In this document: positions 5,936-45,703 of the stretch, in pieces | How the letters are laid out: each line of letters begins with the position of its first letter | Numbering within the stretch: position 1 is the stretch's first letter | DNA from: Minisyncoccota bacterium | GTDB lineage: Bacteria; Patescibacteriota; Minisyncoccia; Phycocordibacterales; UBA918 | NCBI GenBank assembly: GCA_041389025.1 | Contig: JAWKSP010000002.1 | Location: forward strand, 184,079 to 248,078 | DNA length: 64,000 bases | Reading direction: 5' to 3' | The notes under the pieces: generated by a model | Seen by the model: only the letters and a program-made list of their open reading frames with translations | Told to the model about the DNA's origin: nothing | The model's database searches: none | Translations under genes and position numbers: made by a program

Positions 5936-6955
5936 TTATATAGTCAAAAAATTTTCCACTATTTCTCCAACTGTCTCTGGATCATTCTGTTCCATTAATC
6001 TAGTTCTTAACTCATGCGCTCCAGCAAAATCTTTTACATAAGCTTTGTAGTGTTTTTTCATGATAGAAAAGTTTTTGAAAGGCAGGAGTTCGGCAAATAA
6101 TTCTGAGTGTTCTACCATCACTCGTAGTTTTTCTTCTATAGGCACATTATTAGCATCTTTTTCCGGATGAAAAAGCCAAGGGTTACCGAAGATCGCTCGC
6201 CCAAGCATTACTCCGTCGGCGCCGGAAAGCGAAGCTTTCCGGCGCGCATCCTCAAGTGACCAAGCATCTCCGTTCCCTACAATCAATGTTTTAGTGTCTT
6301 CCCCACTTTGTATTTCATCTCTGATTTCAACCGCACGCTTAATACGCTCCCAACGAGCCGGCACCTTACTCATTTCATTACGAGTTCGTCCATGGATGAT
6401 AATTGTAGCTGGCTTTTCGGTAAGTAAAATTGGTAACCATTCTTCTAATTGGTCTTGATTATACCCAAGACGAGTTTTTACCGACACCGGAACGCCGTCT
6501 TCTTCACCCATTTTTGCTCCCCGTTTTGCTGCTTGAATCACCTTTAAGGCTGATTCTGGATTCCGCATCATCGCAGAACCACATCCTTGCTTTTCGATGG
6601 ACCGATCCGGACAGCCCATATTGATATCCACCCCATCAAAACCAAGCTCGAGACAGAGCCTAGCCGCTGCTTCCATATGTTCTTCATTGGCAGAAAAAAG
6701 CTGAGCCACAATTGGTCGTTCAGCTTCTGTATAAATAAGATCGGCCATTAATTTCTTTTTTCCCTCTGAAGTGGCTCTCGCCAACCCATCAGCCGACACA
6801 AACTCAGTAAAAGTCACATCTGGACCACCGATAGTACCGTCAACTCTAGTATGCGCACTATACTTAGCGATTATACGGCGAAAAGGCGCGTCGGTGACAT
6901 CTGCCATCGGCGCTAATACAAAAAAAGGTTTTGGTAACTTTTCCCAGAAGTTCAT
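5936..6955 (-). CDS. dus: tRNA-dihydrouridine synthase
   Basis: LAPMADVTDAPFRR N-terminal signature; TIM-barrel Dus family. Confidence 0.8.
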   Translation of the reverse strand: MNFWEKLPKPFFVLAPMADVTDAPFRRIIAKYSAHTRVDGTIGGPDVTFTEFVSADGLARATSEGKKKLMADLIYTEAERPIVAQLFSANEEHMEAAARLCLELGFDGVDINMGCPDRSIEKQGCGSAMMRNPESALKVIQAAKRGAKMGEEDGVPVSVKTRLGYNQDQLEEWLPILLTEKPATIIIHGRTRNEMSKVPARWERIKRAVEIRDEIQSGEDTKTLIVGNGDAWSLEDARRKASLSGADGVMLGRAIFGNPWLFHPEKDANNVPIEEKLRVMVEHSELFAELLPFKNFSIMKKHYKAYVKDFAGAHELRTRLMEQNDPETVGEIVENFLTI

Positions 6956-6972
6956 AGGTGTTTAATTATTAC

Positions 6973-7386
6973 TTAGTCAGAAAATATAGTGTTAGAGACA
7001 ACTTTTATTGTATTCTTATAATCCGAACTATCCAGACTTTCTAAAAATACCGCTAATTCATCAAGCTCAAAACCATTCAAATGACACTGAAGATTATTTA
7101 TCTTACATAAAACCAAAAAGGTTAAAACAGCAGTCCTTTTATTACCATCTACAAAAGGATGATTTTTGATTAAAAAATAAAGGTAAGCAACGACTTTATC
7201 GGTTGATTTACTATAATTTTCTTCGCCGTAGTTTACTCCATTAACATTAGCTACAATAGCTTCAATTTTATTTATCACCCCTTTACCAACAGGAAAAACA
7301 ACCAGATTCTCATTAAGCAGAAGGTTGTAAATCTCGCAAATGTTCTCTGACGTTAGTGGTTGAAATATCTTTTTTTCCTTCGTCAT
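6973..7386 (-). CDS. doc: Doc/Fic family toxin (death-on-curing-like)
   Basis: HPFVDGNKRTA matches the Doc-type Fic motif HxFx(D/N)GNKR; 137 aa as expected for Doc. Confidence 0.6.
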   Translation of the reverse strand: MTKEKKIFQPLTSENICEIYNLLLNENLVVFPVGKGVINKIEAIVANVNGVNYGEENYSKSTDKVVAYLYFLIKNHPFVDGNKRTAVLTFLVLCKINNLQCHLNGFELDELAVFLESLDSSDYKNTIKVVSNTIFSD

Positions 7387-7547
7387 ATTCTTTAATGATT
7401 CAAAACCGTCCGATTTTTATCGAACTCTTGTTTTGCAAGGTCTTTCACATTCTGAGCCTTATTTTTATTTTTCTTAAAAAGATTAAACATAATTACTACT
7501 ATATAGATATTCACTAACAAATCAACCTTGTAGTGTTCAGTACAAAT

Positions 7548-8903: not shown

Positions 8904-9516
8904 TTACTGAAACTGAAATGATTTGTAAGTCTCCCAAAAAAGAGTTTTATCTTCAGATGACTGAAAGATTATTATAAGCGGAGGTATTTGCAGAAGACTA
9001 GGGATATAATCTATCTCTTTCATAGTTAACTTAATAGCCTTTTCATTTATATCCTCAACCTTAGAAACTTCTGACCACATAATATTAACCGTTCCAAAAA
9101 CACCCACTTGATTAACTAAAATATGTGTTTTATATAAAATATTTACAAGATTATTATCGACCACCCAATTATACTTTCCAAATAAACCAGTACCCTTTGT
9201 ATAACTAATTAAAAAAAAGAATAAAGAAAAGCCTATAAATAAAAACATAATCACAAAAAAAATCACTTGGTATAGAGTCGGTAATTACAAGAAAAAACCA
9301 AATAATTAAAAAAGTAAGCAAAACCCAAAAAGTCATACGAGTACCTATATATAAAGACTGTCTAATTGGTATAGTTTCCAAATTTATATATTGAAATTCA
9401 ACAGAATTTTTCTTCAAATCCGCTCTTTCTTTACTTATAGCAACAAGTTGTTCGTCTCTAGCTTTTCCTAACAACCAGTCTGATACCGAGCTTATTATCG
9501 CAAATATTGAATTCAT
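8904..9516 (-). CDS. hypothetical membrane protein; may be a single gene split by a frameshift in poly-A tracts
   Basis: Two overlapping minus-strand ORFs (8904..9266 and 9205..9516) join within a7-a8 homopolymers. Confidence 0.25.
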
Positions 9517-43200: not shown

Positions 43201-43272
43201 GTCCTGGTGGCGAAGTGGTAACGCTGCGGTCTGCAAAACCGCCATGCGCGGGTTCGATTCCCGCCCAGGACT
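43201..43272 (+). tRNA. tRNA-Cys (anticodon GCA)
   Basis: Acceptor GTCCTGG/CCAGGAC, anticodon loop CTGCAAA, T-arm GCGGGTTCGATTCCCGC. Confidence 0.75.
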
Positions 43273-43322
43273 CACGGAGGAAAATTACACTTTCAGTGTA
43301 ATTTTCCTCCGTGAGTCCTGGG
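43264..43322. repeat. 27-bp perfect inverted repeat whose left arm is the 3' end of tRNA-Cys
   Basis: cccaggactcacggaggaaaattacac-tttca-gtgtaattttcctccgtgagtcctggg. Confidence 0.6.
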
Positions 43323-43329
43323 AGCAAAG

Positions 43330-43480
43330 TATTTTAATACTTTGCGTCGGGAATCGAAAAGCGAACGATCTGAGTCGCTTCTTCCTAAAGCGACGAAGCA
43401 GTGAGCTGTGGTCAAGCGAGTGAAATATTTTCATGTTTTAGAACATGAAAATATCCACGAGAGTGACCGATTCCTTTCCA
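43330..43480. repeat. diverged repeat R1 (related to 43808..43945), ending in a tRNA-3'-end-like segment
   Basis: Shared blocks cgggaatcgaaaagcg / cgggaattgaaaagcg, gagtcgct / gagtcgact, gtgaccgattcc / gtgaccaattcc; internal hairpins. Confidence 0.4.
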
Positions 43481-43675
43481 GCAAAACTCGAAACACTAAG
43501 TAACAACATACTCGACAGTATATTCGTTATCTATTGTAAGATTTAGTGGAGTTATTACATACCAACGTGGTGTAATCAGTAGATCACACTGTCCTAGAGA
43601 CATTCCTATAGGGACTTAAAGAAAGTCCCGTGACTAATTATATTATTTAGAGTAGGATTCAAAAAAAATATTAAT

Positions 43676-43765
43676 GCCGAGGTGGTGGAATCGGTAGACA
43701 CGAAGGACTTAAAATCCTTTGCCTATTTATACGGCGTGCGGGTTCAATTCCCGCCCTCGGCACCA
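43676..43765 (+). tRNA. tRNA-Leu (anticodon TAA)
   Basis: Acceptor GCCGAGG/CCTCGGC, anticodon loop CTTAAAA, long variable arm, encoded CCA. Confidence 0.75.
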
Positions 43766-43807
43766 AATTAAAAAGTAACAACTTCTTGTTGTTGCTTTTT
43801 AATTTAC

Positions 43808-43945
43808 GTAGTCAGAATGACGGGAATTGAAAAGCGTAATTTTAATTCGAATACTTGGAGTATTAAAATAGCTGGGGTCGAGGAGCTTAGTACTTTTTGG
43901 AGTCGACTAAGACGAACAAAAATACTTAGCGAGGTGACCAATTCC
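43808..43945. repeat. diverged repeat R2, ending in ccaattcccgcccttagcac (near-copy of the tRNA-Leu-TAA 3' end)
   Basis: The 3' end matches 43745..43763 (caattcccgccctcggcac) at about 17/19 positions. Confidence 0.45.
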
Positions 43946-44371
43946 CGCCCTTAGCACAAAAAAACAACGAGTCTACTTTGGTTGGACTCGTTGTTTGTAT
44001 TCTAAAGCTAGAATTTAGTGTAATGATATAATCTTTTCCGACAATACTCGCAGTCACTGATGGTAAGTTTGGTAGACCAATCCAAACCATAGTCACCGTC
44101 TGATTTATATAATCCAAGAAAACATAAAGCTCTTCGAGAAAGTAAAATAGACAACATACCCCGTATCTTCAAAAATAAGTTAGTTAATATTCCTTTAATA
44201 TTCATCAGATATGTTCCTCCATAAAGATAAAAACAACATTATACCCAGTAAACAATATAAAACTTTTTACTTTGAAGGACAACCTCATCGCCGTTAAATT
44301 TAAATCATCTAAATAAACAATTTTACGGCTTGTTTTTGACTACAAACTATTGTAAACTCATCGACACACAC

Positions 44372-44444
44372 CCACCCTTAGCTCAGTTGGTAGAGCAGCT
44401 CCCTCTTAAGGAGACGGTCCAAGGTTCGAGCCCTTGAGGGTGGA
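44372..44444 (+). tRNA. tRNA-Lys (anticodon CTT)
   Basis: Acceptor CCACCCT/AGGGTGG, D-arm GCTCAGTTGGTAGAGC, anticodon loop CTCTTAA, T-arm CAAGGTTCGAGCCCTTG. Confidence 0.6.
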
Positions 44445-44556
44445 CGCGAGTAAAACAAACTTCTCACTTTAAAAAGACAAGGAAGTTTGTTTTAATTTCG
44501 CGTCCGAGGCGTAACGATGTATTCTGCTCTACCTAGGCAGAAAACAGTAGAAGTGG

Positions 44557-45267
44557 CTATGAAAAATCACTTATATTATTCTCAATCTTTTCTACCACCT
44601 CAACCAAAGTCTCTAATAGATATAAATCTACAATTTTCTCGTAACCTTCTCGGTTAAAATGAATTCCATCACTTATCTTGTTATTTTTATCCAGAAAAAC
44701 TTCTGAAGTCATAAAAGGTAAAAGTAATATTTTGTGTTTTTTAGACAACTCCTCATACATAGAGTTAAACTTTTCTACATAACCAAGACCGGAAGTAATC
44801 GGTGCTTTCATTTGTAGCAATATCACCACTGGTGCATTTTCACCAGCTTTTAATGACAAAATAGTTTGGTCTAAGTTGTTATAAGTTTGGTCAAGATCAA
44901 TTGACCGAAGCGCGTCATTGCCACCGATACCCAACAATACAATATTCGGCTCTTGAGCTTTAATATCATCAACTCGAGCTAATACCTCACCAGCCACGTC
45001 CCCGTTTACTCCCTCGTTTACAACCAATACATTTAAGCCCAGACCTTTGAGTTTCGTCTCCAATATTGACGGGTAACTATCTTCTTTTGATAACCCATAG
45101 CCAGCGGTCAGACTATCGCCCAGAGCAATTATTTTTATTCCTTCACTTGGATTGGGTACCACGTGTTCAATGTCAGAAATCATAAACCCTGAATCATCCT
45201 TTAAAATAAAAAAGCTAACTATAAATAAAAATAGTGAAGCTAATATTATTAAGTGACTTTTCTTCAT
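44557..45267 (-). CDS. SGNH/GDSL-family hydrolase (lipase/esterase)
   Basis: Signal or TM N-terminus; GDSL block IIALGDSLTAGYG; GGNDAL block. Confidence 0.75.
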   Translation of the reverse strand: MKKSHLIILASLFLFIVSFFILKDDSGFMISDIEHVVPNPSEGIKIIALGDSLTAGYGLSKEDSYPSILETKLKGLGLNVLVVNEGVNGDVAGEVLARVDDIKAQEPNIVLLGIGGNDALRSIDLDQTYNNLDQTILSLKAGENAPVVILLQMKAPITSGLGYVEKFNSMYEELSKKHKILLLPFMTSEVFLDKNNKISDGIHFNREGYEKIVDLYLLETLVEVVEKIENNISDFS

Positions 45268-45347
45268 TATTCATAGTGTATCACTTATTTTATCTTTTAT
45301 TGTGAACTTCCGTAACTACATTATAGTGTTTTAAATTAGCTTTTTAT

Positions 45348-45376
45348 TTAGACAAATATCCTTTTTATGCTATACT
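45348..45376 (+). promoter_or_regulatory. sigma-70-like promoter TTAGAC-17-TATACT upstream of tRNA-Leu-TAG
   Basis: Hexamers and spacing read from the sequence. Confidence 0.4.
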
Positions 45377-45394
45377 CTCCTTCACATCCCAAAT

Positions 45395-45476
45395 GCGCGG
45401 GTGGCGAAATTGGTAGACGCGTTAGTCTTAGGAACTAATAGAGCAATCTGTGGAGGTTCAAGTCCTCTCCCGCGCA
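45395..45476 (+). tRNA. tRNA-Leu (anticodon TAG)
   Basis: Acceptor GCGCGGG/CCCGCGC, anticodon loop CTTAGGA, long variable arm. Confidence 0.75.
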
Positions 45477-45703
45477 CTAGTATAAAAATCAGCTTGACGA
45501 TTAGTCGGGCGATTTTTGTTAGTGCGCGGGAAGAAAGCAAACTACTTTGCTTTCGTGAGGGCTTGAAGACCGGAACGATGCCGCAGGCAAGTGAGGTGGG
45601 GTCGAGAAAATTTTGCTTTGCAAAATTATTCGTGACCAAGTCCTCTCCCGCGCACTAATATAAGAAATCAGTTCGACGAATAATCGGGTTTTTAATTTTA
45701 CTT
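45461..45703. repeat. direct repeat of the tRNA-Leu-TAG 3' end plus about 40 nt of downstream sequence (copy 1 at 45461..45517, copy 2 at 45639..45703)
   Basis: agtcctctcccgcgcacta(g/a)tataa(a/g)aatcag(c/t)t(t/c)gacga(t/a)ta(g/a)tcggg...ttttt, about 85% identity; a second acceptor-like gcgcggg lies at about 45524. Confidence 0.55.

Follow-up and report, generated by a model that had tools for sequence, protein, structure and literature searches.

Analysis of a 64,000-nucleotide (nt) stretch of a Minisyncoccota bacterium (GenBank assembly GCA_041389025.1, contig JAWKSP010000002.1, positions 184,079–248,078; the whole stretch is referred to here as the window) indicated that a minus-strand doc gene and the short open reading frame (ORF) upstream of it are probably a broken copy of a two-gene Doc module specific to Patescibacteria, in which Doc would act as the toxin and an unannotated partner of about 59 amino acids (aa) as its antitoxin. 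An original prediction for this DNA had described doc as an orphan toxin gene; it has this appearance because the partner gene is frameshifted. The coordinates of all features are given in Table 1.

The upstream ORF was confirmed to lie at 7392–7490 on the minus strand and to be very short and basic, as originally predicted. It starts with an ATG at 7490, ends with a TAA at 7394–7392 and encodes the 32-aa peptide MFNLFKKNKNKAQNVKDLAKQEFDKNRTVLNH, leaving a gap of 5 nt (7391–7387) before the doc ATG at 7386. The closest relative of the locus, designated L088, was shown to encode a Doc with 93% identity between the same flanking genes on both sides, and its small ORF is intact, encodes the 59-aa protein MFNLFKKNKSKVQNVKDVAKQVFDNNRTVFESLKEYDEGKKDISTTNVREHLRDLQPSA and overlaps doc by 74 nt. 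BLASTN alignment with L088 showed exactly two 1-nt gaps within the small ORF of the window, 11 nt apart, and the TAA that ends the 33-codon ORF is reached because the first deletion shifts the frame. With the intact L088 protein as tblastn query, aa 1–30 matched at 7490–7401 and aa 30–59 at 7405–7316 (E = 4e-21). The 3′ part encodes (I)KEYDEGKKDISTTNVREHLRDLQPSA followed by a TAA at 7313–7315 and contains the invariant core of the family; read as a continuation of the small ORF in a different frame, it is IKEYDEGKKDISTTNVREHLRDLQPSA followed by the stop (7405–7313). The conserved core (SLKEYDEGKKDIST...) thus persists out of frame at 7316–7405, and the conserved second half is still in the DNA but unreadable from the ATG at 7490. 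The truncated peptide was found to lack the core residues S32, L33, Y36, D37, G39, K41, I43 and T45, its final four residues are frameshift products, and it retains about two thirds of a putative binding helix. As the ORF is split by two 1-nt deletions, there is no intact antitoxin gene beside the toxin in the window, and a tblastn search with the intact 59-aa query found no second copy of the small ORF within the 64 kb. The DNA of 7314–7389 was 100% identical to that of L088, while the flanks differed by about 14%, and the part of the small ORF upstream of doc showed a ratio of non-synonymous to synonymous substitution rates (dN/dS) of 0.096 between the window and L088.

A conserved ORF of 55–65 aa, placed before doc and overlapping it, was found in every readable related locus (about 30 distinct loci); an example of such an intact partner is MFKFLGLKKNKKDFQAVARKQLKKNKAVLKSLRDYDEGKKEISTTNVRKHLQHIQASL. 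The alternative in the original prediction that the toxin is solitary therefore holds in this assembly only and is not a property of the family, as relatives carry an intact partner and the frameshifts occur here. The small-protein family was shown to have at least 213 members at E ≤ 0.01, and those with a named source were all annotated as "hypothetical". Among the 120 members listed, lengths ranged from 47 to 90 aa and none contained a Pfam domain. An exhaustive profile search of 1.84 billion representatives yielded 71 clusters at 50% identity, nearly all of 38–95 aa, and no fusion to a DNA-binding or other recognisable domain; the only long matches in that search were a 204-aa protein in an unrelated context and a weak match within a protein of 1244 aa. 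Searches of Pfam and NCBIfam gave no match at E ≤ 10 for the ORF of the window (32/42 aa) or for four full-length family members, and PADLOC and a PDB profile search gave no family either. PF02604 (Phd/YefM) was not matched by the partner, and the 32-aa peptide matched no Phd/YefM, AbrB or other family in Pfam and NCBIfam, which bears out the earlier statement that no recognisable Phd/YefM antitoxin is present and answers the profile search that had been proposed for the peptide.

Residues S32, D37, G39, K41 and I43 were invariant in 112 small-protein sequences, and L33, Y36, K40 and T45 nearly so. From its short, basic N-terminus the protein passes into a long helix (VAekQLekNraVieSLRD), which is followed by an invariant turn (YDxGKKxIST) and, at the C-terminus, by a short helix. 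An AlphaFold model with a predicted local distance difference test (pLDDT) value of 76 placed helices at 7–10, 15–38 (long, briefly interrupted) and 46–52, with a loop at 39–45; judged from this model, the protein would have no room for a DNA-binding domain. The Fic inhibitory motif [ST]xxxE[GN] was absent from the column composition of the 112 sequences, in which S32 and E38 stand six residues apart and E38 is variable (E/T/Q/I/A/K). Four distant relatives of the small protein (P0285, P0274, P0299 and P0290) showed the core SLKDHDEGKKxIxT; one of them is 204 aa long and carries zinc-ribbon-like CxxC pairs.

The two genes form a conserved operon that has moved between contexts: about 30 distinct loci were found with unrelated neighbours, among them a SET-domain gene, an integrase fragment with nusA, a HigB/M78 island, gyrA, clpB and type IV secretion system pilin genes. 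The pair was not found in a scan of viral contigs. In four related loci (L110, L112, L119 and L124) the small ORF is intact while doc is cut after 23–85 codons or carries an internal deletion that removes the catalytic motif. Losing doc while keeping the small ORF is the safe decay order for a toxin-antitoxin pair. The reverse decay, with doc intact and the small ORF broken, was seen among the related loci in the window only. The NCBI record of the window Doc (MEZ4104442.1, "Fic family protein") belongs to a metagenome-assembled genome (MAG) labelled Candidatus Paceibacterota bacterium, and the 301-aa upstream gene has the accession number directly after that of the Fic protein, which means that nothing is annotated between them; the small ORF is likewise missing from the recorded gene calls of several related loci. 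Judged from the homologues collected, the module appears to be confined to Patescibacteria and the partner to represent a previously unannotated family, and literature searches yielded no description of this module.

Among 27 distinct genes, the overlap of the small ORF with doc measured 62–80 nt, and it was 74 nt in 20 of them. In the window the shared segment covers Doc codons 1–25, for the N-terminal tail and the first helix. No synonymous change between the window and L088 was found at the 15 synonymous sites of the overlap, compared with a dS of 0.77 in the rest of doc. Across the 27 genes, identical residues were encoded by identical codons in 70% of cases in the overlap (94% over codons 1–8) versus 42.5% elsewhere. 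The overlapping frame was open in all 27 and had the same end in 20, while frame-closing T-ending codons made up 49% of equivalent contexts elsewhere in doc; since the overlap is defined by its first stop, this count is partly circular and speaks only to the length that is open. Doc residues 2 (T/M), 4 (E/G/A/V) and 7 (I/K/T) vary over the overlap, and these variants match synonymous third-position changes of D37 and G39, which shows that the small-protein frame is the constrained one over the first 10 codons or so. Further downstream the situation is reversed, with Doc S13, C17, Y20 and L23 conserved and the tail of the small protein variable. This substitution pattern shows that the overlap is dual-coding and that the small ORF genuinely encodes a protein. 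As a conserved stretch of 74 nt read in two frames, the overlap offers a clear natural case of dual coding, with each frame dominating selection over a different part.

A run of seven A at 7370–7376 (GGAAAAAAAG) forms the slippery heptamer A_AAA_AAG in the doc frame, and a −1 slip there would shift ribosomes into the small-ORF frame. Besides, the 95-aa protein P0280 was found to be a natural fusion in which the small-ORF frame continues into that of doc at these A residues. Conservation of the run is not strict, as seen for example in L082 (GGAAAGAAGG). Programmed frameshifting past the break in the window was considered and rejected: the frame is simply open in relatives, and two shifts would be required to pass the break.

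The 137-aa protein carrying the Doc-type Fic motif HPFVDGNKRTA (residues 76–86, nt 7129–7161) was confirmed in both coordinates and sequence; in the Doc type a K replaces the second G of the Fic motif. The Pfam family Fic/DOC (PF02661) matched residues 10–93 (E = 1.6e-11; 45.4 bits, above the gathering cut-off of 24). The NCBIfam model TIGR01550 (DOC_P1) gave 35.6 bits in a partial alignment over residues 61–115, and its cut-off of 38.65 was not reached. The best PDB sequence matches were the Doc proteins 9vzc_A (top) and 3k33_A. A total of 164 homologues of 135–143 aa were found, and those with a named source were from Patescibacteria or unclassified bacteria. The homologues share an N-terminus (MTKEKKxFQPLTS) that stands out by its conservation. 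Residues H76, D80, G81, N82, K83 and R84 were invariant across 114 homologues, and the window Doc keeps 11 of the 11 family-invariant residues. On these matches the window Doc is to be placed in a divergent Doc subfamily; its gene is intact and, judged from a dN/dS of 0.047 relative to L088, has been under strong purifying selection.

The AlphaFold model of Doc, built from the 114 homologues, had a pLDDT of 92.8 and six helices. Its top structural match was P1 Doc 3k33_A (template modelling, TM, scores 0.72/0.79; probability 1.00), and the best-matching structures 3k33_A, 3dd7_A and 3kh2_A gave TMq values of 0.66–0.72 and TMt values of 0.73–0.79, with larger Fic proteins ranked far below the P1 Doc chains. 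The fold, together with the HxFxDGNKR motif, suggests that Doc would be an EF-Tu kinase like P1 Doc. The model also bears on the idea, raised in the original prediction, that an inhibitory helix has moved into Doc itself, and on the corresponding reading that Doc inhibits itself through an internal helix in the manner of class II/III Fic proteins and needs no partner. Doc exceeds P1 Doc by 11 residues, but its model contains no helix beyond the six of Doc and aligns with P1 Doc from end to end over 131 columns; the additional residues form a disordered N-terminal tail that results from the overlap (the first 12 residues are coil, and residues 1–3 have a pLDDT below 50). The motif [ST]xxxE[GN] was absent from the window Doc on direct reading, and a conserved partner gene exists. 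Self-inhibition is consequently the least credible of the explanations considered, and we regard it as very improbable.

It is also conceivable that the small ORF is not an antitoxin gene, being instead a regulatory upstream ORF, a leader peptide or an unrelated partner, and that the Doc-like protein is a non-toxic modifying enzyme of Patescibacteria. Only weak profile similarity ties the small protein to known antitoxin families, a DNA-binding domain is missing from it, its loss seems to be tolerated in the window, and doc lies among housekeeping genes in the window (dus, seryl-tRNA ligase). However, the invariant core and the low dN/dS argue that the protein sequence matters beyond the act of translation, the pair moves between unrelated neighbourhoods with a patchy distribution, and decay has dropped doc and kept the small ORF in four loci. 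In addition, no function other than that of a toxin is known for Fic/Doc proteins with this size and motif (Makarova et al. 2009, PMC2701414). We consider a role other than that of antitoxin unlikely.

The preferred reading, a toxin-antitoxin module with a broken partner, leads to the question of how the partner would act. In the proposed mechanism it would neutralise Doc by direct binding, and its long helix would take the role of the C-terminal Doc-binding helix (..KN..LFRRLA) of Phd-, AbrB- and ribbon-helix-helix (RHH)-type antitoxins. For comparison, ORFs were collected upstream of about 70 generic Doc genes (L001–L080), which are distant canonical loci sharing F[VTI]DGNKRTA. There, 49 canonical antitoxins with AbrB-like, RHH-like or other N-termini were found to end in the same helix, ..(K/R)(K/E)N..L(F/Y)(K/R)RLA. 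This shared helix looks like a common Doc-binding module attached to different DNA-binding domains. When the profile of the small family was aligned by hhalign with that of the C-termini of 44 canonical antitoxins, its helix fell in a single register on their terminal helix (P = 2e-4, probability 46%), and a hidden Markov model (HMM) of the small family ranked canonical antitoxins as 11 of its top 27 matches, although they make up 73 of the 7156 ORFs searched. These results are suggestive of a relationship between the helix of the small protein and the Doc-binding helix of canonical antitoxins. Published results are in line with this: about 23 residues from the C-terminus of Salmonella Phd suffice, as a peptide, to bind and neutralise Doc, and either half alone loses affinity (PMC9207808); in E. 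faecalis residues 52–79 of the antitoxin form a bent Doc-binding helix, and the C-peptide SKQKHNELYKELVT mediates binding (PMC13034048).

In the window itself only the 32-aa N-terminal peptide, which lacks the invariant core, could be made. The original prediction suggested that this ORF may encode a minimal novel antitoxin. It stands to the extent that the ORF belongs to a novel family of very small antitoxin-like proteins, but not in taking the ORF as complete, as it is the 5′ half of a broken gene of 55–65 aa. That the peptide nevertheless works as a minimal antitoxin would be in line with its keeping most of the putative helix (VKDLAKQEFDKNRTVL) and with the ability of short Phd peptides to neutralise Doc (PMC9207808). 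Its end 5 nt before the doc ATG could allow translational coupling; in the register given by hhalign, about 8 residues follow the conserved N in canonical antitoxins (..KNAELFRRLA and stop) and 6 follow it in the window peptide (..KNRTVLNH and stop); and doc is intact at the dN/dS given above. On the other hand, all core residues of the family are missing and the last four residues are made by the frameshift. No family member examined is cut at this point (the short ones start later, end mid-motif or are frame-shifted), the exact peptide was absent from a collection of 15 billion proteins, and each half of the bent helix of Salmonella Phd loses measurable affinity alone (PMC9207808). A working minimal antitoxin is therefore distinctly improbable, and protection of the cell by the 32-aa peptide is judged unlikely.

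With regard to expression, a sigma-70-like promoter was predicted at 7525–7498 (16-nt spacer, 9 of 12 consensus matches). About 24 of 31 distinct loci have a TAnnnT hexamer, often after TG, whose end lies 6–9 nt upstream of the ATG of the small ORF. Because the −10 element is so close to the ATG, the mRNA of the small ORF is probably leaderless or nearly so. Direct reading of the aligned loci revealed no Shine-Dalgarno-like sequence before the doc ATG. Taking these elements together, we hold it to be slightly better than an even bet that the module is a lineage-specific one whose antitoxin, of about 59 aa and devoid of a DNA-binding domain, is translated from a leaderless mRNA and has its core and tail encoded out of frame in the same 74 nt as the start of the toxin gene. 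The last 20–26 codons of the partner share their DNA, in another frame, with the doc start codon and Doc helix 1, so that on this reading neither gene could be lost or altered without affecting the other.

Several points weigh against the proposed module. We infer, rather than observe, toxicity, binding and neutralisation. The similarity between the helices is weak: the best single HMM match had E = 0.63, some matches were in another register and the hhalign probability was 46%. No DNA-binding domain is detectable, which leaves type II autoregulation unexplained, and the translation-initiation region of doc could account for part of the conservation of the overlap. Finally, an intact and selectively maintained doc stands beside a broken antitoxin gene, contrary to what is predicted for a lethal toxin. 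This combination would have to be explained by a very recent event, by an error in the assembly, by a second copy outside the 64 kb or by low toxicity.

Because the small ORF otherwise looks selectively maintained, the break is either very recent or not real. It is quite possible, falling somewhat short of an even chance, that the two deletions are consensus errors of the metagenome and that the true genome has an intact 59-aa ORF, a complete module and no orphan toxin. Both indels are homopolymer-length changes, and the small ORF is otherwise maintained (dN/dS 0.096; 0 synonymous changes in the overlap, with the relative at a dS of about 0.8). The contig of 250 kb in a Paceibacterota MAG would fit long-read data, and a possible second homopolymer frameshift, a T8 run between the ORFs 9205–9516 and 8904–9266, lies 1.8 kb away. 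Against such errors, 87% of the window is coding, its long intact ORFs reach 823 aa and tRNA genes account for most of the larger gaps, which indicates that the assembly is not riddled with indels. Moreover, the runs are short (T4 and A3), which is unusual for homopolymer errors, and two independent errors 11 nt apart are improbable. We judge the odds between real, recent deletions and assembly errors in the MAG to be near even. No independent assembly of the same genome was found: the exact Doc and Dus products were absent from the contig index, and the exact proteins occurred only once, in the same NCBI MAG.

Table 1. Coordinates and basis of the features described at the doc locus of the window
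Feature	Coordinates	Strand	Basis
5′ remnant of antitoxin-like gene, 32 codons + TAA	7392..7490	minus	ORF; 80% identity to aa 1–30 of L088 protein
T4 run (T5 in L088); first 1-nt deletion, shifts the antitoxin frame	7402..7405	minus	BLASTN alignment
A3 run (A4 in L088); second 1-nt deletion, 4 nt upstream of doc ATG	7391..7393	minus	BLASTN alignment
3′ part of antitoxin-like gene, out of frame with 5′ part	7313..7405	minus	tblastn, 90% identity, aa 30–59
doc, intact Doc-type Fic-fold toxin gene, 137 aa	6973..7386	minus	Pfam, NCBIfam and PDB sequence matches; AlphaFold model
Doc catalytic motif HPFVDGNKR, residues 76–84	7135..7161	minus	Sequence; conserved in homologues
Dual-coding segment, 74 nt: Doc codons 1–25 and C-terminal 24 antitoxin codons in −1 register	7313..7386	minus	Conservation; suppressed synonymous change
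−35-like hexamer TTGATT	7520..7525	minus	Promoter scan; kept in L088; consensus match only
−10-like hexamer TATAGT, ends 7 nt before small-ORF ATG	7498..7503	minus	Promoter scan

Some further observations were made around the locus. A T7 instead of the T8 run near 9258–9265 would fuse two overlapping ORFs of the same strand, of 103 aa (9205–9516) and 120 aa (8904–9266), into a membrane protein of about 203 aa; this might be a further homopolymer frameshift or, alternatively, a case of phase variation at the run, and a homologue search with the repaired fusion was empty and hence uninformative on assembly errors. A tRNA cluster at 43201–45477 (Cys-GCA, Leu-TAA, Lys-CTT and Leu-TAG) was found in a 1.4-kb stretch without a long ORF, and four more tRNAs elsewhere in the window occupy several other intergenic gaps. 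In L088 the upstream gene and the module are separated by an additional stretch of about 1.45 kb, with ORFs of 234 and 76 aa, as well as by a diverged 57-nt copy (L088 positions 1748–1804; 84% identity) of the 5′ end of dus, to be compared with 6904–6959 in the window. The window has neither the dus copy nor the extra DNA. The arrangement in L088 looks as if DNA had inserted into the beginning of dus, leaving a scar and rebuilding the 5′ end of the gene.

The family of at least 213 "hypothetical" members probably provides the cognate antitoxin for a Doc subfamily seen in Patescibacteria alone. To our knowledge, the partner would be the smallest natural Doc antitoxin. Since it would correspond roughly to a toxin-binding helix with a new extension, it may be useful for defining the minimal determinants of Doc neutralisation. 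In practical terms, the absence of the small ORF from annotation means that such toxins are mislabelled as solitary. If correct, the proposal would add a new family of Doc antitoxins, together with a conserved dual-coding overlap of genes on the same strand whose length is unusual for a toxin-antitoxin operon, and the window would represent a natural state with the antitoxin broken and the toxin intact. Survival in this state would imply that the truncated helix protects, that Doc output collapses without full upstream translation, or that a copy acts in trans.

Compared with P1 Phd-Doc (PDB 3K33, 3DD7), the module is similar in the fold of the toxin and its HxFx(D/N)(A/G)NKR motif, in having a small partner gene upstream in the same operon, and presumably in neutralisation through a helical segment of the partner. 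It differs in that the partner has no Phd/YefM, DNA-binding or dimerisation domain and in that the first gene is probably on a leaderless mRNA. The two genes overlap by 62–80 nt out of frame, whereas the canonical Doc loci sampled mostly showed an antitoxin-doc overlap of 0–4 nt. With the AbrB/MazE- and RHH-type Doc antitoxins (for example E. faecalis EFPhd-EFDoc (9VZC), the MazE-Doc pair TasA-TasB of pGI1 and those of L001–L080, including the Saccharibacteria loci L003, L007, L027 and L054) the small protein appears to share a hydrophobic-x-K-N-x-x-[LV]-[FIY]-x-x-L helix in the register of the toxin-binding C-terminal helix, but it lacks their N-terminal domain and runs about 25 residues further (DYDxGKKxISTxxVxxxL...). 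The class I Fic antitoxins (VbhA, YhfG/FicA) are likewise stand-alone, helical proteins of about 55–62 aa without a DNA-binding fold, encoded directly upstream of a Fic-fold toxin. Unlike these, the small protein does not contain [ST]xxxE[GN] and showed no Pfam match to the VbhA/YhfG families, and the class I toxins are AMP-transferases with GNGR, whereas the toxin of the present module is of the Doc type with GNKR.

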